From: a virus
Taxonomy: Duplodnaviria; Caudoviricetes
DNA length: 64,000 nt
Virus record (IMG/VR): IMGVR_UViG_3300028591_000071
Reading direction: 5' to 3' (one strand)
The position numbers and the translations under genes are program-made. The stretch's first letter is position 1. Every line of letters begins with the position of its first letter. Below the pieces are notes generated by a model. That model worked only from the letters and a program-made list of their open reading frames with translations, ran no database searches and had not been told where the DNA came from. Positions 37,360-51,584 of this stretch are shown in pieces.

Positions 37360-38736
37360 ATGGAAAACAATTTCTATTCGGGGCTCTCCCGAACATTTGA
37401 GGCGTACTTTCCGCAAGTCAAAGAAAGTGTAAAACAAACAATTGAATTCTTCAACGCCGAAACATTCGTATTACCAACACCAAAAGTAGATGACGAACAG
37501 TCAGCATTCGTATCGGACTATATTCCAAGAAGAAATGGCCGAAAGAAACATGTGTCTAAATTAGTGGGCAAATTCACTATTGAGGACGGGGATGAGGAAA
37601 ACATCTTGCCAAAACTCAAGTACGAAGTCCAATCAGGATGCGGTAAAAACCCGACATTTTATCTTGTAACAACGCCATTAGACGATGTAATCTACATCGG
37701 AACAACGGAGACGGGTAAAAGAAAAAAATCAGTGTCGGCATCAACGCTTACAGGTGGGCTTCTCCCACAACATGAAAACAGGCATGCGTATTGTGCCTAT
37801 CTTGGAATCATGTCGGTCGTAAAGAAATTTGGCCACGCACTCGTCTACGAAGTTGATACGCAGTACAGCAACACATTTTTAGACCAATATGGCTGCAAAA
37901 CCAAGATTTACCCGACGAACATCATCATCGACAATATCATCAACGAACTTTACGATGCTGCAGAACGCAACGGTAGTCTTATGATTTCATCAATGCCCGG
38001 ATGTGATGAAGAAACATCCGTTCAGGCTAAGACATCAATCTCCATTTGGAATAGCGTAAAGGCATTCTTCAATATGTACAAAAATGGGGCGTTAAATGTT
38101 AAAGGCAATCCATCAAACGGCGAAGAGATAAAGGTAGCAGTAATTGGAGACTATATGTCAATGGAGTTTTCAACCAATTTCAGCAAAAAAATACAGAGAA
38201 TGCGGAAAGAAAATGAGGAAGATAAAATAAATAACTTAATATCTGAAAAAGTAATTGGGCTATGTAACCCGAGTCGGGACAATGATAAATTTGCATTGAC
38301 AGATTGTAAAAAATCATTGATGCCATTTGCACCAATCGGACCGGAAAAAGAAATGGACGAAAATATAGGTGAAAAATACGGCAAAGAAACCAGAGATTAT
38401 GAATCAAAGATATACGCTATTATAAAGAAAAAATTTATAGCGTCCTATCTGAACATTGGTTGTGACATTCCGTTCAAAAATGAGGACAGTTATTCATCAA
38501 GTAGAGCAATAGTAACGTCACAAAAGAATAATAGCATGATTATTTTGTCGTTTAAAGGAGCTGAAGACCTATCATCCAAATCCGTCAATGAAATTGTAAG
38601 AGAAACAGAATTATTCTTAGGAATATGTATTCCCGACGCAAAAATAGTTGTTGATACAGCAATCACAATGGATGAGATAATTGCAATTGAAAACAAATTT
38701 AACTATGATGGATTAGGGCGACTTAAAATGAGATAA
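37360..38736 (+). CDS. Hypothetical protein
   Basis: 458-aa ORF, no recognised motif; terminator at 38738-38780. Confidence 0.8.
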   Translation: MENNFYSGLSRTFEAYFPQVKESVKQTIEFFNAETFVLPTPKVDDEQSAFVSDYIPRRNGRKKHVSKLVGKFTIEDGDEENILPKLKYEVQSGCGKNPTFYLVTTPLDDVIYIGTTETGKRKKSVSASTLTGGLLPQHENRHAYCAYLGIMSVVKKFGHALVYEVDTQYSNTFLDQYGCKTKIYPTNIIIDNIINELYDAAERNGSLMISSMPGCDEETSVQAKTSISIWNSVKAFFNMYKNGALNVKGNPSNGEEIKVAVIGDYMSMEFSTNFSKKIQRMRKENEEDKINNLISEKVIGLCNPSRDNDKFALTDCKKSLMPFAPIGPEKEMDENIGEKYGKETRDYESKIYAIIKKKFIASYLNIGCDIPFKNEDSYSSSRAIVTSQKNNSMIILSFKGAEDLSSKSVNEIVRETELFLGICIPDAKIVVDTAITMDEIIAIENKFNYDGLGRLKMR

Positions 38737-38813
38737 CAAAAAAGCGTGACTCTCAATGAGCCACGCTTTCTTTTTCTTTTACAGATATTGCTTAGCCTCT
38801 GAGATTAACAAGA

Positions 38814-39335
38814 TTATCCACCAATGGCAGAGTTCATTTCACCTTGGTATTGTTTATTTAACCAATCGGCAATCATCTTATACAAAGCACTTGTAGCATC
38901 AGATTCTTCTTGTACATTATATAAATAATCATATAGTTCTTTCACTTTCATTAAAGTGTCCTCACTTGGGCGTGCCCAAGTTTCACTTAGTATCTTCTTC
39001 ACGCTCTCAGCGACAATCTGCCTGAGAGTATTTTCACTCAATTTTACAGTATTCTCGTTGGTGGATTTTTTGCTGATAATCCTTACATTGTTCTTTCCTT
39101 GACGGCGTAAAGCATCAGCCTTTCTTTCTGCCGCTTCTCTTGTCTTGAATCCCTTATCGCCAACAATACTTCTGTTTGGGCCTTCGCCAATTGTGACAAA
39201 GAAATTCAGGTTTTCATCTTTTGGCCCGACATTTCCCTTCGGGTTTTTTGGGTCAGTAACCCTTTGGAACTTCAGAGCCTCAGCAACAATCTTCCTGATG
39301 GTATTCTCGTTTATCTTTACTACATTCTTTTTCAT
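38814..39335 (-). CDS. Putative internal head protein with two targeting-motif copies
   Basis: VKINENTIRKIVAEAL and VKLSENTLRQIVAESVKKILSE; late motif at 39353. Confidence 0.75.
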   Translation of the reverse strand: MKKNVVKINENTIRKIVAEALKFQRVTDPKNPKGNVGPKDENLNFFVTIGEGPNRSIVGDKGFKTREAAERKADALRRQGKNNVRIISKKSTNENTVKLSENTLRQIVAESVKKILSETWARPSEDTLMKVKELYDYLYNVQEESDATSALYKMIADWLNKQYQGEMNSAIGG

Positions 39336-39365
39336 AATAAATCGATTTTCTTATAAATAGTACAA

Positions 39366-39695
39366 TTATTTGATTAACCACATATAATCATTTTCTTCAT
39401 TGTCTTTCTCCAAATCATTGTATCCGTGCCGTTTATACCACGAATACGCGTTGCTTCCTATTTTCGCTTTAAGGCATATTTGCTTACAGCCAAACTTTTC
39501 AGCGATTTTGTCAGCCGTTTCAAGTATTTTATTTCCTAACCCTTCACCACGATGCTCTTTTGACACAAAGACATTTGAAAGGTACAAGGTGCTATGGTCA
39601 TCGTCATAAACATATACGGAAAACCTAAACGACTTATTTTCGCCGTTTATGTTCCAAACCATTCCCCAATCAGTTTTTTCTTTATCTATTGTCAT
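39366..39695 (-). CDS. GNAT acetyltransferase
   Basis: LSNVFV.KEHRGEGLG...AYSWYKRHGY. Confidence 0.88.
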   Translation of the reverse strand: MTIDKEKTDWGMVWNINGENKSFRFSVYVYDDDHSTLYLSNVFVSKEHRGEGLGNKILETADKIAEKFGCKQICLKAKIGSNAYSWYKRHGYNDLEKDNEENDYMWLIK

Positions 39696-39698
39696 ATT

Positions 39699-41072
39699 TT
39701 ACTTGATTAACCACCTGTAAGGGGCAAATTTGTCTTCTTTTTCCTTCTTGCTTTCGCCTGTATAAAACGGCATTGAGTAATTTCTCTTCGGTGTAATTGA
39801 AATTTCTGTGTTCACTTTTATATCATGTGTTTTCGTGCTTGCTGTAATAGTATTGCTTGCCACCCAAGATTTAAGAAGAACTTTATCCTTTTCCTTTGCC
39901 GCAATGAATTTCTTCATTGAATAGTTCATGACGAAGCAAGCCATTGCAAGGCAGGTAAGCGTATCATCGTGAGCGCCGTCCTGATGGTCGATTCTCGCAG
40001 CCGTTCCCTTGTAAATCCAAGTATCGAGTTCTGCGATAACACGCTTTGAACGAATCTTTATCTGATTGGTCTTTACCATATTTGCGAAGAAGGTAAGCAT
40101 TTGGAAACGGACGGCGTTACTATGGAATCCTGGAAGTTTCCCTTCGGCATTCGGCTTAAGCGAAGATGCTTCGATTTCCATGGTAAATTTGTTCAACTGA
40201 GGGTCATCATAGTAAAGATTCTTATACCCGAGCCTCTGCATCATAAGGATACAAGCATCACCCGTACCACCAATACAATCAACCGTACAGAACGCCTCGC
40301 CGTACATCATGCCATATCTGTAAGCAAGTTCACCGCAGTCGTCACCCGTAATCTTTCCGTGATATTCAAGAACCTGTTCAAGGATTGGCTCACCCGTCTC
40401 TTCGTCAATTCCGTCCATGTCAAGTATTTCAATGGCCGTTCTATCTGCAGCATCACCACGGGAGCAGTCGATACTCATCATATACCTATGCCCCGGAATC
40501 GGCTCTTTCCAAATCCATGTGTCGTCCATCATCGGGTCGGTGTACTTCGGGTCTCTTTGGTTGAGTTTCTGCTGCATTTCGATGTATTCAGGCTCAACGA
40601 CATTGGATGCAGACCCAAGGAATGATACATCCAACTCCTGTGCAATCTTTTGACTGTCGTTGTTGAACTGTTTGCACATCGTTACATACCAAGGGCTTCT
40701 CGGAGACCACCCGTCCTGTACCATCTGCTCCCAATGCTCTTCGTCGTACTTAATGTTTCCTTCCTTGTCAAGCGTCGGTTCTTTTTCAATAATCCAATCG
40801 CCCGTTTCGGGGTCTTTTTTCGTCCATTCAAGATGCTTGTTGTATCGAGGGTCTTGATACCACTTGAGTTTTACAAGTTCAAAGTTGTTCCAATCTTTCG
40901 TACCCTTTAACTCAGCCCTTCTGCATGTTTCATAATACAACATGTCTTTACCGTTGGGGGTTGAAATGAGTATTATATGGCCTCCTGTGGAAACAGTAGG
41001 CAATGCAGATGCATAAACATCTTTTCCGTTCTCAATAAACGCGGCCTCATCGAAGATTAGCCATTGAACTCC
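39699..41072 (-). CDS. gp17: Terminase large subunit, exon 2
   Basis: GVQWLIFDEAAF (Walker B), ISTPNG, nuclease domain SIDCSRG...HDD. Confidence 0.92.
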   Translation of the reverse strand, partial: GVQWLIFDEAAFIENGKDVYASALPTVSTGGHIILISTPNGKDMLYYETCRRAELKGTKDWNNFELVKLKWYQDPRYNKHLEWTKKDPETGDWIIEKEPTLDKEGNIKYDEEHWEQMVQDGWSPRSPWYVTMCKQFNNDSQKIAQELDVSFLGSASNVVEPEYIEMQQKLNQRDPKYTDPMMDDTWIWKEPIPGHRYMMSIDCSRGDAADRTAIEILDMDGIDEETGEPILEQVLEYHGKITGDDCGELAYRYGMMYGEAFCTVDCIGGTGDACILMMQRLGYKNLYYDDPQLNKFTMEIEASSLKPNAEGKLPGFHSNAVRFQMLTFFANMVKTNQIKIRSKRVIAELDTWIYKGTAARIDHQDGAHDDTLTCLAMACFVMNYSMKKFIAAKEKDKVLLKSWVASNTITASTKTHDIKVNTEISITPKRNYSMPFYTGESKKEKEDKFAPYRWLIK

Positions 41073-41320
41073 CTGTTAATCAATTAATTACGAAGTTTTT
41101 TATCATCGTACTCATATAATTTCTTATATGTTTGGCGTACATTTTCACATAAAGTGTTCCGCACTCTTGGATGGATTATATTTATTCACCATCTACGCTC
41201 TACGGTGTTTCTGAGCCTTTCGCAATCTCAGAACTTACCTCGGTATTGCCATATCCGTACTTTGCAGCAGAGACTTAGGGTTCACCGATTTTGCGGAATT
41301 TAAAGTCGGCAGAGTTGTTT
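41073..41320 (-). ncRNA. Group I intron (248 nt, no ORF, IA-like)
   Basis: 5' exon ends in U within P1 GUCGGU/GCCGAC; P3 UUCCGCA/UGCGGAA; P4 UCGGU/ACCGA; P7 G(A)GCGUA/UACGCC; P7.1; P9 GAAA hairpin; terminal G; splicing restores the frame. Confidence 0.93.
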
Positions 41321-41845
41321 ACCGACTCCACGAGATGCGTCAGGGCCCGAAGAACGGGCAACTACTTTACATCCGTTTTTAAGCACCAACTCTTTTGAGT
41401 TGCACACATCAAAGATTACATTCTTGTTTGGTGGAGGTGATAGTGGGTCTTTTGCGTTCTTAATGAATTCGTCTCCCCACATCCACAGCGGGAACTGTAG
41501 AAGAAAATCCCTTATCTTGAAAAGCATTTGCTGAGCAAGGTCTAGTGTGTTTCCAATTGCAAGAACTGTTTGCGGCGATTTTTTGTCTGCAAGACACATT
41601 TCACACGCAATAAATGCGCCGGCCGTGGTTGTGGCTCCGGCTTGTCTTGGCTTAGTTAGGACAGCATTATTTGCGTTTCCTAAAGTTTTACAAAGGTCTT
41701 GCTGCCTTGGAAATAACATAAATGGAACCATTGCCCTTTGTGTGTTATCAAATGTTTTAAGATAATGCTGAATCATATAAATACGACTCTTATCCTTCCA
41801 ACATTTTGCGAATTCAGACGATAAATAATCATAATCAATAATCAT
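41321..41845 (-). CDS. gp17: Terminase large subunit, exon 1
   Basis: LFPRQ (adenine binding), KPRQAGATT (Walker A region), ends DASRGVG. Confidence 0.92.
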
Positions 41846-41899
41846 ATCAATTGTCTTTTAACTATTTATAAATATATTAAATAGTAGTATTTGTAAAAA

Positions 41900-43519
41900 A
41901 TGCCCGCAAAATCAAATAAAGAAGAATTCATAAGAAGAGCAAAGTTAGTTCATGGAGATAAATATGACTATTCTAAAGTGAATTATGTAAATAATAGAAC
42001 AAAGGTCATAATTATCTGTCCTGAGCATGGAGAATTTGAACAAGTTCCCGATTCTCATTTAAGGGGGAGCGGATGCCCAATTTGTAGGTGGAAAAAAGCA
42101 AAAGAAAGTATTAGAAGAGCTCAGGGAATGACGACAGATGAATTTATAGAAAGGGCAAAGAAAGTACATGGAAATAAATATGATTACTCAAAAGTAAAAT
42201 ACGAAAATACAGAAACAAAGGTGTGTATAATATGTCCTAAACATGGCGAATTTTGGCAAACACCCCATCATCACTTAATGGGAATTGGATGCCCCCTTTG
42301 TGGCCAAAAGAAGTATGGAACAGAAGAGTTCATTGAACGAGCAAAGAAAATACATGGAGATAAATACGATTATTCAAAAACCAATTTTATTGGCAAAAAA
42401 TATAAAGTAATAATAACATGCCCAATTCACGGAGATTTTGAGCAATTACCGCTGAATCATTTAAAAGGATATGGGTGTCCAGAATGCGGTAGACATTTCG
42501 GAAAACAAGAAAAAGCGGTCCTTAAACTTCTTAAAGAAAAATATGAGCATGTTGAGTATCAATATACCAACAATACATTCTTAAAGGGATTAAAGAAAAA
42601 TCTTACATTGGACTATTTTTTGCCGGACTATAACATTGGAATAGAATATCAGGGGATACAACATTTTTATCCACAAAATGTTTTTGGCGGACAAAAAGCA
42701 TATGATGTTGTTTATGAAAGAGATTTTAGAAAATATCAACAATGCAAAGAACACGGAATTCAAATATTCTACATATCTTTCGAAAAGAAGATTCCTGAAG
42801 ATTATTTTGCCCCTGTGTATAAAACATTTGAAGATTTAGCAAATGCAATTGATATTTATATTAGTAAAAAAGACGAAAACAATATGAAGACACTTAACGA
42901 ATCCATTATAAGAAAAATCGTCGCGGAATCGCTGAAAAAAGCCCTTATGGAGAACATAGAGGGCGAATACAGGACAAAAGGCTCTCTCAATAAGAAGACC
43001 TTGGAGAAGAATGCAGGAAAATCTGCAGAGGAAATTATTGCCGACAGGAAGAAGAAAGCAGAAGAAGATGAACTCGCATCAAGATGGGAGGATACCGCAG
43101 AGGATGTCCTTTCAAGATGGAATGACGGGGATGAAAATGAATTTGACGACACAACAGCAGGCGGAGACTATAAGATAGATTTCTCCGACCCATATTTCTT
43201 CAAAGACGGACAGCGTTGTGACGCGGATGCAATAGGAAATTTCCATAATGATTTTGCAATCGTAAAGAAAGATGGGAAGTGCAATTATGTCAATTCAAAC
43301 GGTGAACTTCTTTCAGACGATTGGTTTGACGCATGCAACGACTTTGAAGATGGCTTTGGTCTTGTAGCGAAAGACAGGAAAAGAAACTTCATAGGAAGTA
43401 ACGGCCAGTTGCTGATGGACATATGGGCCGATAGAGCGGGAGATTTCATTGGTGGAACCGCCCCTCTCATTATCAACGGAGAACGCCACGAGGTTGATAG
43501 GAACGGAAACATACGATAA
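41900..43519 (+). CDS. Putative homing endonuclease (3 DUF723-like Zn repeats + PD-(D/E)xK/VSR-like domain) fused to a WG-repeat-like virion protein
   Basis: Three EEFI.RAK..HG.KYDYSK...C..HG.F.Q...H..G.GCP.C repeats; LDYFL...IEYQG.QH; internal MKTLNESIIRKIVAES at 42884. Confidence 0.8.
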   Translation: MPAKSNKEEFIRRAKLVHGDKYDYSKVNYVNNRTKVIIICPEHGEFEQVPDSHLRGSGCPICRWKKAKESIRRAQGMTTDEFIERAKKVHGNKYDYSKVKYENTETKVCIICPKHGEFWQTPHHHLMGIGCPLCGQKKYGTEEFIERAKKIHGDKYDYSKTNFIGKKYKVIITCPIHGDFEQLPLNHLKGYGCPECGRHFGKQEKAVLKLLKEKYEHVEYQYTNNTFLKGLKKNLTLDYFLPDYNIGIEYQGIQHFYPQNVFGGQKAYDVVYERDFRKYQQCKEHGIQIFYISFEKKIPEDYFAPVYKTFEDLANAIDIYISKKDENNMKTLNESIIRKIVAESLKKALMENIEGEYRTKGSLNKKTLEKNAGKSAEEIIADRKKKAEEDELASRWEDTAEDVLSRWNDGDENEFDDTTAGGDYKIDFSDPYFFKDGQRCDADAIGNFHNDFAIVKKDGKCNYVNSNGELLSDDWFDACNDFEDGFGLVAKDRKRNFIGSNGQLLMDIWADRAGDFIGGTAPLIINGERHEVDRNGNIR

Positions 43520-43615
43520 GCGTTAAAAATAGTATAATTCATGCGATGTTGATTTTTTCAGCATCGCATTTGTTTTTGTTCCTATTATTTTGTATATTAA
43601 TGTAAAACATTGACA

Positions 43616-44014
43616 ATGGATTATAAGGATATGACGGTCGAACAACTCGACAGGGAAAAGGAGCGACTTAAGAACAAATACAATGAGATAGAAGACCAAT
43701 GTGTCCACGACGGTCTCAATTGGGAAGAATTCTGCAAGAAGGCGAAGAAAGAAAGAGAAGGTCTCTATTTCATAGACAAATATAAGCGGCTCAGACAAGA
43801 CCCTGCCGTTGAATATGGTAAGGAGTGGAAGGGTGATACACTTACATTGGAAGAGTTCGTAAGAAAGTGTAAGAACAAGGAATTTGTTGACGAAGACGGC
43901 GTCGGATATTATGCGACGGAATCAGCAAAGAGCGATGTAAAGATATTCCCGTCAGATGTTGAAGAAAATTTAATAAGAGAGGATTTCTCTCATGTAATAT
44001 GGTTTGACAAATGA
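43616..44014 (+). CDS. Hypothetical protein
   Basis: ORF after a TTTG/TATATT promoter-like sequence. Confidence 0.75.
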   Translation: MDYKDMTVEQLDREKERLKNKYNEIEDQCVHDGLNWEEFCKKAKKEREGLYFIDKYKRLRQDPAVEYGKEWKGDTLTLEEFVRKCKNKEFVDEDGVGYYATESAKSDVKIFPSDVEENLIREDFSHVIWFDK

Positions 44015-44508
44015 AAATAGATTTAGAGACAAAGGTGACAAAGGAAATAGATGTCAAATACATCTGTATGAATGTTGGCCCAAGATATTGGGAAGATGGC
44101 GATGTCAACGGAGAAGAGGACATCTCATACGAAGAGCAGGAAAAAGGTGCAAAACCGAGGATGCCGATGGCCGTTGAAAATCCCGATTCAAAGCGGAAGG
44201 ACGAAAGTTACAGGTTTGCGGTAAAGATTGATGCTGAAACGGGAAATATTGTAGGATGGCCGGAGGGAGTTGAAGCAGACATACATTATAAGGTGTGCGA
44301 CGATGGAACTTATTGGCTTGAAGACGCCAAAGGAAACAAAATTCATGAGATAGATTCTTATGTTCCTGAACTTTGGGATTTTTATGATGACTCATATGGC
44401 GATTATATTATAATGACGGTCGAAGGCAACGGACATGTGAAAGAGTGGTATGATGAGTCGAAATTGAAGAGCAGGATTGATTTGTTTCTTAAGGAAGAAG
44501 GATTTTAA
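44011..44508 (+). CDS. Hypothetical protein
   Basis: 165 aa, HYKVCDDG.Y...GDYI pattern seen in phage proteins. Confidence 0.8.
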   Translation: MKIDLETKVTKEIDVKYICMNVGPRYWEDGDVNGEEDISYEEQEKGAKPRMPMAVENPDSKRKDESYRFAVKIDAETGNIVGWPEGVEADIHYKVCDDGTYWLEDAKGNKIHEIDSYVPELWDFYDDSYGDYIIMTVEGNGHVKEWYDESKLKSRIDLFLKEEGF

Positions 44509-44553
44509 TAGGAATGATATACCTGTCACACATAAGTAAAATTGTACACAATT

Positions 44554-45066
44554 ATGACGAAAGAAAAAGCAATTGAAGAACTTGGGTATGATATAATACC
44601 AACATACATCTGCGATATTTTAAAGGATGCCAATGTTAACATGAGTGTGAATGAGTGTTCCGTAACATATTTTGGCGAAAAGTTTGAACCATACGAAAAA
44701 CCGCTCGATGATTTTGCAAAGTGGCTCACGGAATATAAGAATATCAACAAGCCGGACAGACTCTCTGTATCTGATGTTGCAATCGTCAACTCAAACGAAA
44801 GATACTGTCATGGAGTTATTCAAGTTTTCAATGGGCTTAATGGTACAACTTTAGTCTCAAGGCAGTCCCTCAAACATGTTATGGATATCATTCAACACCT
44901 TGAAGACTATTTTGGCGCTCGTGCTTGGATTTCTCAAGTGTCGTATCACAGCGATTGTTTTTGTTACGCAATCTCCTTTGTATTCTGGGATGACTATTTC
45001 CATGTAATTCGTGACGGAATAAATGGGCAGTACGGAACATTCCGTCCACTCTACCATTGGGATTAA
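44554..45066 (+). CDS. Hypothetical protein
   Basis: ATG 44554. Confidence 0.7.
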   Translation: MTKEKAIEELGYDIIPTYICDILKDANVNMSVNECSVTYFGEKFEPYEKPLDDFAKWLTEYKNINKPDRLSVSDVAIVNSNERYCHGVIQVFNGLNGTTLVSRQSLKHVMDIIQHLEDYFGARAWISQVSYHSDCFCYAISFVFWDDYFHVIRDGINGQYGTFRPLYHWD

Positions 45067-45107
45067 CAAATAGGGTAAACATGTATATAAAAGAAAAAAC
45101 GCAGGTG

Positions 45108-46805
45108 CTATTCCTGCGTTTCTTTTTTCCATACGTACCTTATTAGACCGCAGTCCCAAATTCTGTCAAAGCCTATTTTCTTTGCCATCTCAGATTCTGT
45201 CATATCTTTTGTAAGTTCATACTTGTCCCCGTATTTTGCGATAATCCTGTCTTTGCGGAATCCGAACTTATGGAATCTTTGGCATCTGCCAACTTTATCG
45301 TTTATATAAGTATAACTTGGTTTTGTATATCCATCATTTTCAAACCCAAGGATTGTATAAACATTCTTATCTTCATTTATTGTCCACCTTCTGTCCGCAA
45401 ACGAAATTATTTCTGACGGGTCATGCTCTGAAACAAATCGTTTGAACAATTTTCCGCCAACACCTTGGCACACAAAGTTATAATCGCTTGCAAATCGTGT
45501 TAGTTCCCATATATTCTTTTCTGTGTTTCTTTTTTTAAACGACATAATAGCAATTAGTTTCCCATTAAAAAACGCCCCATATGATATGGTTGAACCAACC
45601 CATCCTTGTATGTGGTATCTGTTCAAGAAATTTTTCGCATCTTCAACACCGACTTCAGAGATAATGCATTTTCTACCCATTATTTTTGGCAAATCATATT
45701 GAAGTCCAATGATATGACCTATTTTGTTAAACACTATATCTTTTTTATGAACAAATTCGTCTTCAAAAATATGAATCAATTTTATTCCATTCTTTTTACA
45801 TTCGTTCGTCTTTGATACATGAAAAAATGGGGTCTTTTTGCCGCGCCATTCAGAGTGCCATCTTAGGCCGTCATATTCAATTCCAATATTTTTCTGTGGA
45901 ATAAATATATCAATTTCTTTTCCGTGTAATATGCTGCGATTTTTTTCGCAAAATACATTGTTTGACTCAAGAAAAGATAAAATTTCTTTTTCTGCTTTAG
46001 ATGTATATGATTTTTTTGTGTTTAAGTTTGTTTGTTCGGCTCGTTTCTTGCCAAATTCTCGTAGAGAATCTGATACGGTTTTATCGCCATATTTTTCCAC
46101 ATATTCTTTTTTAGTAATACCATGTTTTAATAAGTGGTGCCAATCTATCCTTGACAATTTTTTCCCACAAATTGCACATGTTACGAATTTTTTAGCATCA
46201 GTCTCTGTTTGTAAATCGAGAGTTTTATTTGCAAGTCTTAAATATTCTTTGTCTTCAGGATGTTCTAAAAGATATTTTTCTTTTGTAATTCCGTGTTCTT
46301 TAATGATATGATTTAAAAATGCACCACTTTTATTTTCAACATCAATAGTCTCCCAATTACAGTATGGGCACTTTTTAGAAATTTCAGTATTTTCTACCTG
46401 TATGATATCAAACCATTGTTCGTACCATTGATATCCGTTTTTTTTGAAAAAAGTAGTTCTCTTATAAAGAGACGGAACTTCAATACCCATCTCTTTTATA
46501 TAAGACGTGAGGGCGCCAGAAGAATTCAAATAATCCTTAAATCTTTTACCGGTGTTTTTTTCTATTGCTTCGTAGTGAAATCCGTTTTTTGGCGGATATC
46601 GTTTCTTTAGCTCTTCGTTATAATTCCATCCGTTGTCTATAACCTTTTTTGTTGGGCAAAAAATTGTAATTCCGTTTTCTAACAGAATACTTTTTACCCT
46701 ACGGTCACCGATTTTGAAATTTTTAGAAATTTCTTGTATTGTTTTTCTTTCCTCTTTGTACAGATTACAAATCTCAATTTTGTCTTTTTCGTTAAGTTTT
46801 CTCAT
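45108..46805 (-). CDS. Free-standing endonuclease-like protein (HTH, Zn fingers, VSR-like nuclease, C-terminal GNAT-like domain)
   Basis: CPYC/CAIC..H fingers, EIDIFIP...IEYDG.RWH, ELTRFAS...ADRRW...LGF...IWDCG; own late motif at 46824. Confidence 0.75.
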   Translation of the reverse strand: MRKLNEKDKIEICNLYKEERKTIQEISKNFKIGDRRVKSILLENGITIFCPTKKVIDNGWNYNEELKKRYPPKNGFHYEAIEKNTGKRFKDYLNSSGALTSYIKEMGIEVPSLYKRTTFFKKNGYQWYEQWFDIIQVENTEISKKCPYCNWETIDVENKSGAFLNHIIKEHGITKEKYLLEHPEDKEYLRLANKTLDLQTETDAKKFVTCAICGKKLSRIDWHHLLKHGITKKEYVEKYGDKTVSDSLREFGKKRAEQTNLNTKKSYTSKAEKEILSFLESNNVFCEKNRSILHGKEIDIFIPQKNIGIEYDGLRWHSEWRGKKTPFFHVSKTNECKKNGIKLIHIFEDEFVHKKDIVFNKIGHIIGLQYDLPKIMGRKCIISEVGVEDAKNFLNRYHIQGWVGSTISYGAFFNGKLIAIMSFKKRNTEKNIWELTRFASDYNFVCQGVGGKLFKRFVSEHDPSEIISFADRRWTINEDKNVYTILGFENDGYTKPSYTYINDKVGRCQRFHKFGFRKDRIIAKYGDKYELTKDMTESEMAKKIGFDRIWDCGLIRYVWKKETQE

Positions 46806-46920
46806 ATCTTTTTACAATATACAATAAATAGTTTAAAAAATCAATAACGCCAAAAACGGGCGCAAAAAAATTCACGCCGTTTTTTGGTGTTTCTGAAAAT
46901 AAAATTTGATTGTGAGAATA

Positions 46921-46950
46921 AAAAATGGGGCTTGAAACCAAGCCCCATTA
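46921..46950 (-). terminator. Terminator of the major capsid gene
   Basis: AATGGGGCTTG-GTTT-CAAGCCCCATT-TTT on the minus strand. Confidence 0.8.
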
Positions 46951-46981
46951 ACTATAATTTACTATTATTCAATAGTTTAGA

Positions 46982-48997
46982 TTAGCGAATCTCCTGAGGG
47001 TCCCACTGTACAAGACCATCAACCTTCACAGCACCGAAGAAGCGATTGTTCACACACTTCTTGGCATATCTCGTCATGATTCCCTTTACAGGTGCGAAGT
47101 TTTCAGGGTTGTAGATGGTAGGAGTCAACTGCATAGGGATATAAGGTGCATAGATGTAACCTGTGTCGAGGAGGCTCTTGCCCTTATGTCCGATGATGAT
47201 TGACCATGCAGGTGAATATGGGTCGCGATATACCTGATACCTGTTCTGGAGAGCACCGATGCGCTCAATACCCATGTTGTACTGGTCTGACTCAGCAGAA
47301 GCGTCACTTACATGGAAGTACTCAAGGTTGTCGAATACAGCTGAGATTTCAGATGAAACAACAATCCAGTTTGCACCACCACGAAGGGTTGACTTGTGAA
47401 TCTGTGCAGAAATCTGATTGACTCTTGTCATGAGTTCCTGATTCCAATCCTTCTGAGTGTAGTTGGTTGAGAAACCAGCCTGCCTTCTCCAACCATTGAC
47501 ATCCCAACGGAGCTGCCATGGAGCAGCCTTACGGAGGTCACGGAGGATTTCACGGTCGATTTCAGCAGCAATCTGCTCTGAAAGGAGAGCGGTGAGCTCA
47601 GCCTCAGCGTCAATATTGTGGAATGCTGAAACGTCCTGTGCAAGTTCAGGTGACCAAGTTGCACGGAGCTTACGCTCTTCAACTGATACGGTCACGCTGC
47701 TGAGGTTGAATGAAACCTCACCGATTTCGGTCTCAAGCTCGAGTGAGTCGTACTGTGACCATGCTACTGAGAACATTTCCTTAATCTCATCAGCGGTCTT
47801 CTTCTCAATACCTACATAACCGTCAAGGCTGATGCCCTGCTTCTTAGCAGGCTTTGCAAGGTCGAGGTCGATAAGGATGCTTCCGTCTGGTGCGCAGAGG
47901 TTGCTTCCGTATTCAACGATACCCTTACCATACTTCTGAGAAACAACGCGGAATGGGATTCCTTCGTACTTCTCGAAGCAAGCGTGCTCGTTGTCACCCT
48001 CGGTTCCGATAGCGTCCTTTGCAAAAACCTTAAGGGATGCGAGGAAACCTTCGGTATCCATTTCGTTTCCGTCAGGACCGGTAAGTTTACCTGCGTTGAA
48101 CTGTGAGAATCCCTTAACCTTAAGCATGACATTACGGAGAGTTCCATCAGCATAAACCCTGATGTTGTCGTCTGTAAGTTCAACTGGTTCGAAGTCAATC
48201 ATAGTTACAGGAGTTACATCCTCGCTTACGCGGATACGAATCTTACCCTTAGAGTTGTCATAAAGGAAGTCGTTATAGAAGAGGTCATAGAGAGTCCTCT
48301 TGTGGTACTTGGTAACTGAAGGCTTTACCTGACGGATGATTGCATCCTCCTTGTTCTGTGCCTTAAGATACTGAAGTGCTGAGTCGTAGTTGTCTACAGG
48401 GCCCTGTGCTGTTGCATAGGTTCCGTCAGCCTGCTGCTTGTTGTAATCGATAGTGGTTGAAGGGTCGATTTCGGTCCAAGTCTCACCACCGTCCTCACTG
48501 TACTCGAATACCATTCCGTTGACAACCTCATCAGGAAGATAGAAACGGTTGTACTTGTCACCATTGTGGCGGCTTGTACGCTCGTAACCCATCAAACCCT
48601 TATGACGGCCAACTGACTTGTCCTGTACGCGACCGTTCTCATCCAAGAACTCCCACTCACGCTCTGAGGTAACAGGAAGCATGAAGAACAAACGACCAAC
48701 AGGAAGGTTCATTGCCTGTACTGAAACGATGTCGTTAGCAAGAAGCTTGCTGAAAACACGACGGATGATAGGGAAAACAACAGTCTCGAATGAGCCGCTG
48801 CTATCAGTGTTAGTAGCCTCTGAGAGGAGTGCCTTAGCCTCGTTCTCGTAAAGAGTTGCTACATTCTCCTTAACGATACCCTTAAGGCCTTCGGTCATAC
48901 CGAGAGATGCCCAACGGTCGCTAATCTCTTTTCTAATTCTTTTCTGTTCGTTGAGCTCGATTGTGCCCACCTGACCAGATTTCAAAAATTCTTTCAT
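46982..48997 (-). CDS. gp23: Major capsid protein (T4 gp23-like), 671 aa with large central insertions
   Basis: ANDIVSVQAM, RKLRATWSPELAQD, EIDREI, YAPYIP, GIMTRYA. Confidence 0.95.
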   Translation of the reverse strand: MKEFLKSGQVGTIELNEQKRIRKEISDRWASLGMTEGLKGIVKENVATLYENEAKALLSEATNTDSSGSFETVVFPIIRRVFSKLLANDIVSVQAMNLPVGRLFFMLPVTSEREWEFLDENGRVQDKSVGRHKGLMGYERTSRHNGDKYNRFYLPDEVVNGMVFEYSEDGGETWTEIDPSTTIDYNKQQADGTYATAQGPVDNYDSALQYLKAQNKEDAIIRQVKPSVTKYHKRTLYDLFYNDFLYDNSKGKIRIRVSEDVTPVTMIDFEPVELTDDNIRVYADGTLRNVMLKVKGFSQFNAGKLTGPDGNEMDTEGFLASLKVFAKDAIGTEGDNEHACFEKYEGIPFRVVSQKYGKGIVEYGSNLCAPDGSILIDLDLAKPAKKQGISLDGYVGIEKKTADEIKEMFSVAWSQYDSLELETEIGEVSFNLSSVTVSVEERKLRATWSPELAQDVSAFHNIDAEAELTALLSEQIAAEIDREILRDLRKAAPWQLRWDVNGWRRQAGFSTNYTQKDWNQELMTRVNQISAQIHKSTLRGGANWIVVSSEISAVFDNLEYFHVSDASAESDQYNMGIERIGALQNRYQVYRDPYSPAWSIIIGHKGKSLLDTGYIYAPYIPMQLTPTIYNPENFAPVKGIMTRYAKKCVNNRFFGAVKVDGLVQWDPQEIR

Positions 48998-50861: not shown

Positions 50862-51584
50862 TTAAAGAATTTGCCCCAAAATCTCATCTGCCCTGATGAA
50901 TCTTTCGTCCAAAACAGGCTTCTCTTCCTCTTTTGACTCAAGATATTGCCCCAATTCTTCCTTTCCGTTAGGGGAGATAAAGGCCCCCGGAGTACTAGGG
51001 TCACTAACCACATCCCAACAGACTATCTCATAATCATCAGCCACATAGAGTATTCCCATCTTGTTCGTAACGGTTCCGAGACCCCTTGATGAAACGCCTA
51101 TTTTATATCCTTGCAGCAAAAGGTTTGCTGTTTGGTCACCCTGACAGGATATGATTCCATGCTTCCTGAAGCCCGGGCTTGTTATGATTTCAAGTTTTCC
51201 TACAAGCGTGTGTCCTTCCCAATGGAGTTCTACAATGTTTATCGCAACGCGTGAAAGGTCTATTACTGATTCTGATGGGTGATTCAATTCTCCCATTGCC
51301 CTTTTCTCCTGAATCTTGGCCGCGTAGTTATTTACTTCCCTCTTAAGGATTTCCTCAGGATAAATTCTTCCGTTTGCGTTCTCAATGCCGTATTTTTGGA
51401 ATACCGCATCTACAACAAATGGGTATGGGCAATGAAACTCGTCTCCCGATGCGTTTTCGGCGTTGATTGCCTCAAACAACTTCTTATTGTTTCCGCATTC
51501 TGAGGAGATGAATCCGTCATGCTCTATAAGCAAGCCGGTTCCAGTCTGCCCCTTCTTTATTTCAACTAAATTTTGTCTGTCCAT
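50862..51584 (-). CDS. gp21: Prohead protease (T4 gp21-like)
   Basis: NANGRIYP, GELNHP, GVSSRGLG, WDVVSDPSTPGA. Confidence 0.95.
   Translation of the reverse strand: MDRQNLVEIKKGQTGTGLLIEHDGFISSECGNNKKLFEAINAENASGDEFHCPYPFVVDAVFQKYGIENANGRIYPEEILKREVNNYAAKIQEKRAMGELNHPSESVIDLSRVAINIVELHWEGHTLVGKLEIITSPGFRKHGIISCQGDQTANLLLQGYKIGVSSRGLGTVTNKMGILYVADDYEIVCWDVVSDPSTPGAFISPNGKEELGQYLESKEEEKPVLDERFIRADEILGQIL

Follow-up and report, generated by a model that had tools for sequence, protein, structure and literature searches.

A homing-type endonuclease fused in frame to a resident late gene and co-inherited with an ORF-less terminase intron in rumen jumbo phages

In this study, we analyzed a 64,000-nucleotide stretch of viral DNA (IMG/VR record IMGVR_UViG_3300028591_000071, Caudoviricetes; hereafter the window), whose source is a giant T4-like phage of the rumen with relatives among uncultivated rumen jumbo phages. 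At positions 41900-43519, a gene for a homing-type endonuclease continues without a stop codon into a resident gene encoding a WG-repeat protein, and the divergent neighbor is a terminase gene (TerL) interrupted by a 248-nt group I intron that has no open reading frame (ORF) of its own. We propose, with a probability of roughly 60%, that the free-standing nuclease cassette and the ORF-less TerL intron constitute one mobile unit, the cassette of which has become fused to the resident gene. The features of the locus, in order of the argument, are as follows.

41900..43519, + strand: fused ORF comprising the homing-type endonuclease, a linker and the tagged WG-repeat resident protein (539 aa, stop-free inside)
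41921..42493, + strand: three zinc-ribbon repeats (DUF723/DUF4379, CapR-like; residues ~8-63, 80-135 and 142-198)
42500..42871, + strand: Vsr-like / PD-(D/E)XK-type nuclease domain (residues ~201-324)
42872..42883, + strand: linker DENN, four codons, joining the nuclease to the resident gene
42884..42955, + strand: tag helix MKTLNESIIRKIVAESLKKALME of the resident protein, with two conserved (L/I)-x-E sites, LNE and LME
43187..43516, + strand: WG beta-repeat domain (PF14903), partial and beta-propeller-like, with BamB-like blades and a pLDDT of 85-92
41321..41845, - strand: TerL exon 1 (175 codons), which moves with the nuclease and the intron
41073..41320, - strand: ORF-less group I intron in TerL (248 nt), inserted between ...SRGVG and GVQWLIFDE, just before Walker B
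39699..41072, - strand: TerL exon 2, the remainder of the terminase
41862..41874, either strand: CTATTTATA in the palindrome TATTTATAAATA, which contains TATAAATA on each strand, in the spacer that separates the divergent TerL and nuclease genes
42852..42860, + strand: promoter-like ATATTTATA in the last codons of the nuclease (I-D-I-Y-I), 23 nt before the resident ATG

Co-inheritance of the nuclease and the terminase intron

TerL appears in the window as two ORFs on the - strand (41300-41845 and 39699-41003), and its ATG at 41845 (-) is divergent from the nuclease gene across a 54-nt spacer. The original prediction, made from the DNA letters of this stretch, had placed the fused gene opposite an intron-bearing terminase; the spacer and the ORF-less insertion at 41073-41320 bear this out. 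The borders of the insertion were set by alignment with four uninterrupted TerL genes. Its length is not a multiple of three, and without it, TerL is 632 aa long and shares 90% identity with the TerL of the related lineage L019, which is uninterrupted and also 632 aa. At the predicted splice junctions (GUCGGU/AAAC...CAG/GG, where slashes mark the joints), the 5' exon ends in U and the intron in G. P1 is formed by GUCGGU of the exon and GCCGAC of the insert, and its U-G pair is present in each of the five copies. For the same number of copies, RNAalifold gives 69 consensus pairs, 11 of them with compensatory changes, and a 301-nt stretch searched alone matches Rfam RF00028 with 20.7 bits (E 0.0028). 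Judged by these features of sequence and predicted folding, the insertion is an ORF-less group I intron.

The nuclease gene, which lies 580 bp from the intron, is inherited together with it. Nine lineages possess both the + strand nuclease and the intron, eight possess neither, and no lineage is mixed. The carriers are the window, L007, L013/14, L015, L016, L021, L022, the P0056 contig and the more distant L024; the non-carriers, in which TerL is uninterrupted (631-639 aa), are L005, L006, L009/12, L002-4, L017/18, L019/20, the P0034 contigs and L023. Maximum-likelihood trees require five (exon 1), six (exon 2) or seven (WG) changes of the carrier state, and a single clade of carriers is rejected by the approximately unbiased (AU) test (p 2e-4 for exon 1, 2e-7 for exon 2 and 2e-18 for WG). 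Carriers and non-carriers are nearest to each other in the pairs L016/L006, window and L022/L005, L013/L002, L021/L019-20, and L007 with L017 or L009. There are seven independent sister pairs in all, five of them well supported, and every one is concordant.

A comparison of L016 with L006 delimits what has moved. Over distal exon 2, and again from the start of WG, the two share 96-99% identity; this value falls through 92, 87, 84, 72 and 69% nearing the intron, is 70-92% in exon 1 and is regained sharply at the WG start. The divergent tract extends ~400 nt beyond the intron into exon 2 and has its sharp end at the far side of the nuclease gene. In addition, the window, L015 and L022 group together with 100/100 support in exon 1, while exon 2 and WG of these three lie apart. 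The conversion tract and the exon 1 clade together define a moving unit that takes in about 400 nt of exon 2 along with the intron, exon 1 and the nuclease gene and ends, on its right, where the resident gene starts. The nuclease and the ORF-less intron thus behave as one mobile unit, as had been anticipated, with concordant states in all 17 lineages, five to seven switches and a conversion tract. The co-occurrence pattern in these sequences supports a co-mobile nuclease-intron unit, moved by either collaborative or trans homing.

The nuclease-WG fusion and the resident gene

The claim that codons 1-328 encode three zinc-binding repeats and a nuclease without a stop agrees with the 539-codon open frame and with the Pfam, PHROG and Foldseek matches. 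The three repeats, all within residues 1-200, match DUF723 (E 2e-10) and DUF4379 (E 3e-7) in Pfam, and the Cys/His residues of their pattern, C-P-x-H-G-x-F ... G-C-P-x-C, are invariant among the fused copies. DUF723-type repeats are the usual DNA-binding modules of phage homing endonuclease genes (PMC10448857), and the zinc-ribbon repeats probably form the DNA-binding module here. The nuclease domain matches PHROG 559/681/9084 ("endonuclease/homing endonuclease", E down to 3e-62) and has a fold near that of Vsr (Foldseek 1cw0_A, TM 0.53 by target). D238, E249-Y-Q251-G and H255 are invariant in the 13 fused copies that were aligned. In an AlphaFold model built on 13 fused homologs, confidence is good over the repeats, nuclease and C-terminal domain, the last of which Foldseek places near beta-propeller blades, and the pLDDT is below 50 at residues 326-366 and 401-423. 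Searches of PDB sequences with the nuclease part and the WG part gave nothing useful. Between copies at dS 0.2-2.9, dN/dS is 0.03-0.17 for the repeats and 0.05-0.28 for the nuclease, and these low values indicate that the enzyme is kept by selection. The module is a member of a very large family of free-standing homing-type nucleases. The predicted nuclease residues, the DNA-binding repeats and the presence/absence polymorphism all fit an endonuclease of the free-standing homing type.

A search with the C-terminal part that admitted longer proteins recovered the nuclease-WG fusion again, in no fewer than 17 protein clusters drawn from independent assemblies (ENA, JGI, Logan and NCBI). The fused copies are 538-544 aa long, except for one of 502 aa with a deletion within the WG part, and their WG parts are 100% down to 55% identical to that of the window. 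Every junction reads ...AIDIYI-x-x-K, four variable residues and M; the linkers vary in sequence, all are in frame and of fixed length, and none contains a stop. Neither a stop nor a frameshift has arisen in the linker over dS > 1. Two allele types of the nuclease, ~55% identical to each other, have this junction in common and are shuffled with respect to the WG alleles. Contigs from four runs, three of which are RNA libraries, were also inspected; such contigs carry no transcript ends and may include DNA carry-over. One contig, from the RNA library of another study, is identical to the window over the nuclease-WG junction (42823-43042). The in-frame fusion without a stop, as originally described, is genuine, since it is found in at least 17 independent clusters with a synonymous divergence of 0.5-2.9 between copies.

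The resident gene is complete and starts at the ATG at 42884 (M329, MKTLNES...). When residues 329-539 alone were used as the query, 38 homologs were found, ~30 of which are stand-alone proteins of 206-221 aa that start at a Met aligned with M329; the predicted MKTLNES start in relatives without the nuclease is thereby confirmed. The resident protein has three parts, namely the ~22-aa helix MKTLNESIIRKIVAESLKKALME, a conserved, charged and poorly modeled stretch, and the WG beta-repeat domain (PF14903). Most relatives carry the resident gene alone. A tblastn search with the WG protein gave just a weak match in a Wolbachia phage, and megablast of 38500-47000 against GenBank phages, in a collection older than the report on the Jug phages (PMC12880540), gave no match. 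TerL is at most 24% identical to that of cultured phages. Because of the weak tblastn match and this low identity, there are no annotated relatives and no virion proteome to consult.

The sequence CTATTTATA has 13 copies in the window, where 0.6 are expected, and lies 15-29 nt upstream of several ORF starts (the sites include 8173, 10262, 39352 and 41862). By its number and placement it is probably the core of the phage's late-type promoter, and the copy at 41862, in the 54-nt spacer, would serve both directions. The element ATATTTATA at the end of the nuclease gene is one base off CTATTTATA. This second late-type motif at 42852, also part of the original prediction, is conserved: in 17 of 17 fused copies the last helix of the nuclease is AIDIYI, encoded as GATATTTATAT. 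The codon that makes the motif is I in all of these, and E/D (AID(E/D)YI) in P0092, P0123 and P0099, the nearest unfused homologs sharing the tail, in which the motif is absent; the unfused nuclease of L024 likewise has AIDEYI. We considered whether the nuclease tail IDIYISKK represents the old promoter or 5' untranslated region of the resident gene and rejected this, as free-standing homologs carry the same tail as AID(E/D)YI; the tail therefore belongs to the nuclease. The promoter-like motif was created solely by the E/D-to-I codon change, which looks like a promoter written into coding sequence. In unfused relatives, gCTATTTATAT lies 14 nt upstream of the resident ATG. The resident protein is probably still made alone, via the predicted internal promoter and the retained ATG, and we infer that the fusion protein is made from the upstream promoter.

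The nuclease is one of several modules joined to WG homologs. At least five other, unrelated N-terminal modules (100-270 aa) are fused in frame to WG homologs exactly at the tag (P0004/P0006, P0007, P0026, P0049/P0055 at L017:8001-9212, P0051, and P0052 at L023:4146-5585), and none of them matches a Pfam or PHROG family. Two lack a Met at the joint; P0049/P0055 have none ahead of the tag. In P0051, a further module is inserted on the other side of the tag, behind it. As some modules join without a Met, the tag must tolerate an internal position. L024 (4001-5044, +), a more distant relative in which TerL exon 2 is 67% identical, contains the nuclease and the TerL intron and lacks the WG gene; its nuclease ends in a tag-like helix (...QPVKLNEQDLKKIINDTLKKLL) followed by a stop, with no Met and no promoter-like motif. 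Among the 114 other members of the nuclease family, only P0092, which has a different nuclease allele type and a near-identical tail, carries a weak tag, so the tag is not general to the family.

Two other genes of the window share features with the fused ORF. The ORF at 38814-39335 (-), of 173 aa, contains the tag twice, at its N-terminus and at residues ~103-123, and the sequence at its internal junction (...IISKKSTNENTVKLSEN...) is similar to that where the nuclease meets WG (...YISKKDENNMKTLNES...), as if two tagged genes had been joined. Positions 45108-46805 (-) encode another homing-type endonuclease, 565 aa long (PHROG 3339, E 2e-93), with weak matches to MTES_1575 nuclease and ROS/MucR-like zinc motifs. 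L002, L005, L006, L010 and L023 have this gene, and L013, L015 and L016 lack it. Given this patchy presence and a distribution different from that of the fused nuclease, it is another mobile gene of the head-gene block.

Proposed homing route and alternative explanations

We propose a homing route for the locus based on its gene order and the conversion tract. The cassette, situated between the divergent terminase and the resident late gene, would bring, besides its three zinc repeats and Vsr-like nuclease, a late-type promoter of its own. During mixed infections, intron-less relatives would have their terminase DNA cut by the nuclease, most likely at or near the intron insertion site, and repair from the donor would transfer the proximal part of exon 2 together with the intron, exon 1 and the nuclease gene. 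Since the intron splits the target, the carrier would be protected. The stop-free frame passes through the four-codon linker into the resident gene, so that transcripts from the upstream promoter would yield a nuclease-WG fusion protein, and with the embedded promoter-like element and the retained ATG the resident protein would probably also be made alone. The cleavage activity, the cut site and the fate of the fusion protein are inferred parts of this route.

Several observations weigh against the proposal. The match to RF00028 (20.7 bits) is far below the gathering score of 50, and a 10-kb scan gave no match. The RNA-library contigs contain the unspliced form and no spliced joint over 41073-41320; contigs of this kind cannot show absence and, as DNA may have been carried over, speak neither for nor against splicing or expression. 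A sign test on the five well-supported sister pairs gives p 0.06. Use of the internal promoter is deduced from sequence alone. Persistence of the stop-free frame over dS > 1 and the tag in L024 hint that the fusion is more than a by-product; the rarity of even a weak tag in the rest of the family, and the fact that homing needs no packaging, suggest instead that it is one. The nuclease could also cut elsewhere, for example in a conserved intergenic segment. In nuclease-free relatives, such a segment of ~40 nt (...GAAAAAGTTGATTTAATG...) lies between the TerL and WG promoters (L005:3110-3219, L006/L009:7900-8000) and is replaced by the cassette; its role may be regulatory, or the nuclease may cut there. 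Finally, a related nuclease stands beside an uninterrupted TerL in L002-4 and L023. This DUF723 nuclease (45-49% identical) is on the terminase strand directly upstream of TerL (L002, L003:4056-4850 (-), L004 and L023:3086-4048 (-)), and its stop overlaps the TerL start in L003 and L023 (ATGA in L023). The same intergenic spot is used here by a second endonuclease in the opposite orientation and without an intron, and tight coupling to the downstream gene seems to be a habit of the nuclease family.

Trans homing is an unlikely explanation of the locus and still the strongest of the alternatives. The nuclease would then cut close to where it is itself inserted or within the 5' portion of TerL, and the intron would be co-converted passively and would not be protective, as in the MobE/nrdB pair of T4. 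The ~40-nt segment is a plausible target that insertion of the cassette destroys, the intron at 580 bp is inside the T4 co-conversion range of up to 2 kb (PMC2790892), and the opposite-strand nucleases do without an intron. This explanation is opposed by the absence of any discordant state in 17 lineages despite five to seven independent switches, and by the L016/L006 tract, which runs ~400 nt past the intron and breaks off abruptly where the nuclease gene ends on the far side. Collaborative homing is favored over trans homing because the tract is centered on TerL and not on the intergenic site.

A different question is whether the tag serves as a T4-like capsid-targeting and processing signal. 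The ~22-aa helix would then be a position-independent joint for capsid loading and protease release that has been captured by the nuclease. The nuclease would be loaded into proheads, freed after LNE or LME and injected, as a virion-borne weapon that cuts the terminase of competing intron-less relatives, resident or co-infecting, early and before they replicate. We regard this as improbable, more so than trans homing, on an argument drawn by analogy with T4. The phage has a Gp23 capsid protein, a T4-type portal and the following protease.

50862..51584, - strand: gp21-type prohead serine protease (S77; PF03420, E 1e-26)

T4 gp21 cleaves after L/I-x-E (PMC9026906, PMC3012670), and T4 capsid-targeting sequences have brought EcoRI and staphylococcal nuclease into heads (PMC9026906). 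In the resident protein, E6 and E23 do not vary, and each follows a hydrophobic residue (mostly L/I/V) and then any residue; these are the two conserved (L/I)-x-E sites of the tag. Across relatives, residues 1-100 of the capsid protein (48698-48997 (-)) are almost invariant and contain IELNE and, at residues 57-60, L(L/I)xE directly before A; this stretch, with the L-x-E kept at residue 60, is consistent with T4-like propeptide removal. The tag region is modeled as flexible (a helix of low pLDDT), unrelated modules are fused at the same joint, some without a Met, the L024 nuclease retains the tag though the resident gene is absent, and no stop has entered the linker over dS > 1. Against packaging, T4 capsid-targeting sequences are short N-terminal propeptides (PMC9026906, PMC3012670), whereas the tag, N-terminal in the unfused relatives, is internal in the fusion (residues 329-352), with the cargo upstream of it. 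Furthermore, the rest of the nuclease family shows only the one weak tag, late synthesis of the nuclease in the cell would be enough for homing, and the predicted internal promoter points to separate production of the resident protein. The function of the tag is itself deduced, and the phage has no cultured relative, as the TerL identities indicate.

It is very improbable that the fused ORF is a domesticated two-part protein, in which the nuclease and the zinc module are now a functional and no longer selfish part of the resident protein. The strong purifying selection on the nuclease and the age of the fusion would agree with domestication. However, near-identical backbones differ by the module alone (L016/L006, window/L005 and L021/L019), the resident gene is alone in most relatives, and the module comes from the very large family of free-standing homing-type nucleases. 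An assembly or sequencing artefact, in which a stop before 42884 was lost, is excluded for practical purposes, because identical open junctions with differing stop-free linkers of fixed length recur in at least 17 independent clusters of four assembly sources and in the RNA-library contig of another study.

Comparison with known systems and significance

Among known systems, collaborative homing has been described for F-CphI and the ORF-less psbA intron of cyanophage S-PM2, and the same layout occurs in T3/T7-like phages (PMC6083498, PMC10448857). In ICP1, a homing endonuclease gene lies beside the N-terminal exon of a terminase gene with an ORF-less intron (PMC10448857). The present locus resembles all of these in having a free-standing endonuclease next to a gene with an ORF-less group I intron, the two being co-inherited, and it resembles ICP1 further in that the interrupted gene is also a terminase and the endonuclease stands beside its N-terminal exon. 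The nucleases differ in type: F-CphI is Endo VII-like, that of ICP1 is T5orf172, and the present one is Vsr-like and carries DUF723 repeats. Unlike in S-PM2 and ICP1, the endonuclease is stop-free and fused to its neighbor, and cleavage at the insertion site is a prediction. In T4, trans homing by MobE mobilizes the nrdB intron with its defunct I-TevIII (PMC2790892). There too, a neighboring free-standing endonuclease moves, via co-conversion, an intron that is immobile by itself, and the tract is visible in progeny or relatives. The differences are that MobE nicks at a place other than the insertion site, that a dead endonuclease ORF remains inside the T4 intron, and that no neighbor is fused.

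In fungal mitochondria, LAGLIDADG ORFs are encoded in introns, translated as fusions to the upstream exon and released by proteolysis. They share with the window a homing endonuclease produced as a translational fusion with a host protein. They are intron-borne and fused to an upstream exon, in contrast to the free-standing endonuclease here, which is fused to a downstream gene.

The internal proteins of T4 offer a parallel for the tag, as a gp21-type protease is involved, unrelated proteins share a short conserved leader with L/I-x-E, and the cargo is highly variable (PMC9026906, PMC3012670). The tag described here differs in being ~22 aa long and helical, in occurring at N-termini, internally and at C-termini, and in having, in this fusion, the nuclease upstream of it. 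The gut jumbo "Jug" phages have small ORF-less group I introns (~206 nt) that split terL and are common there, and like the rumen phages they are large gut phages with many stand-alone endonucleases; in the portion of that report available to us, a pairing of the terL intron with an endonuclease, or a fusion, is not described (PMC12880540). Because S-PM2, T4 and ICP1 show the same layout, the nuclease-intron pairing is already known in kind (PMC6083498, PMC2790892, PMC10448857). What is new here is a long-kept translational fusion to the neighboring gene with a tag resembling a capsid-targeting sequence and an embedded promoter.

The combination of a free-standing endonuclease and an ORF-less intron is a known route of persistence for introns that are unable to move alone. 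This locus is an unusually clear natural record of it in uncultivated rumen jumbo phages, with 17 lineages, repeated switches and a conversion tract. Less expected is a selfish gene that has long been fused to its neighbor and contains the neighbor's promoter in its own last codons. A mobile gene can thus settle beside another gene without silencing it. If the tag is a capsid-loading signal, the fusion would be the first example from nature of a homing nuclease that travels inside virions, and the tag would be a ready-made handle for loading proteins into phage heads.

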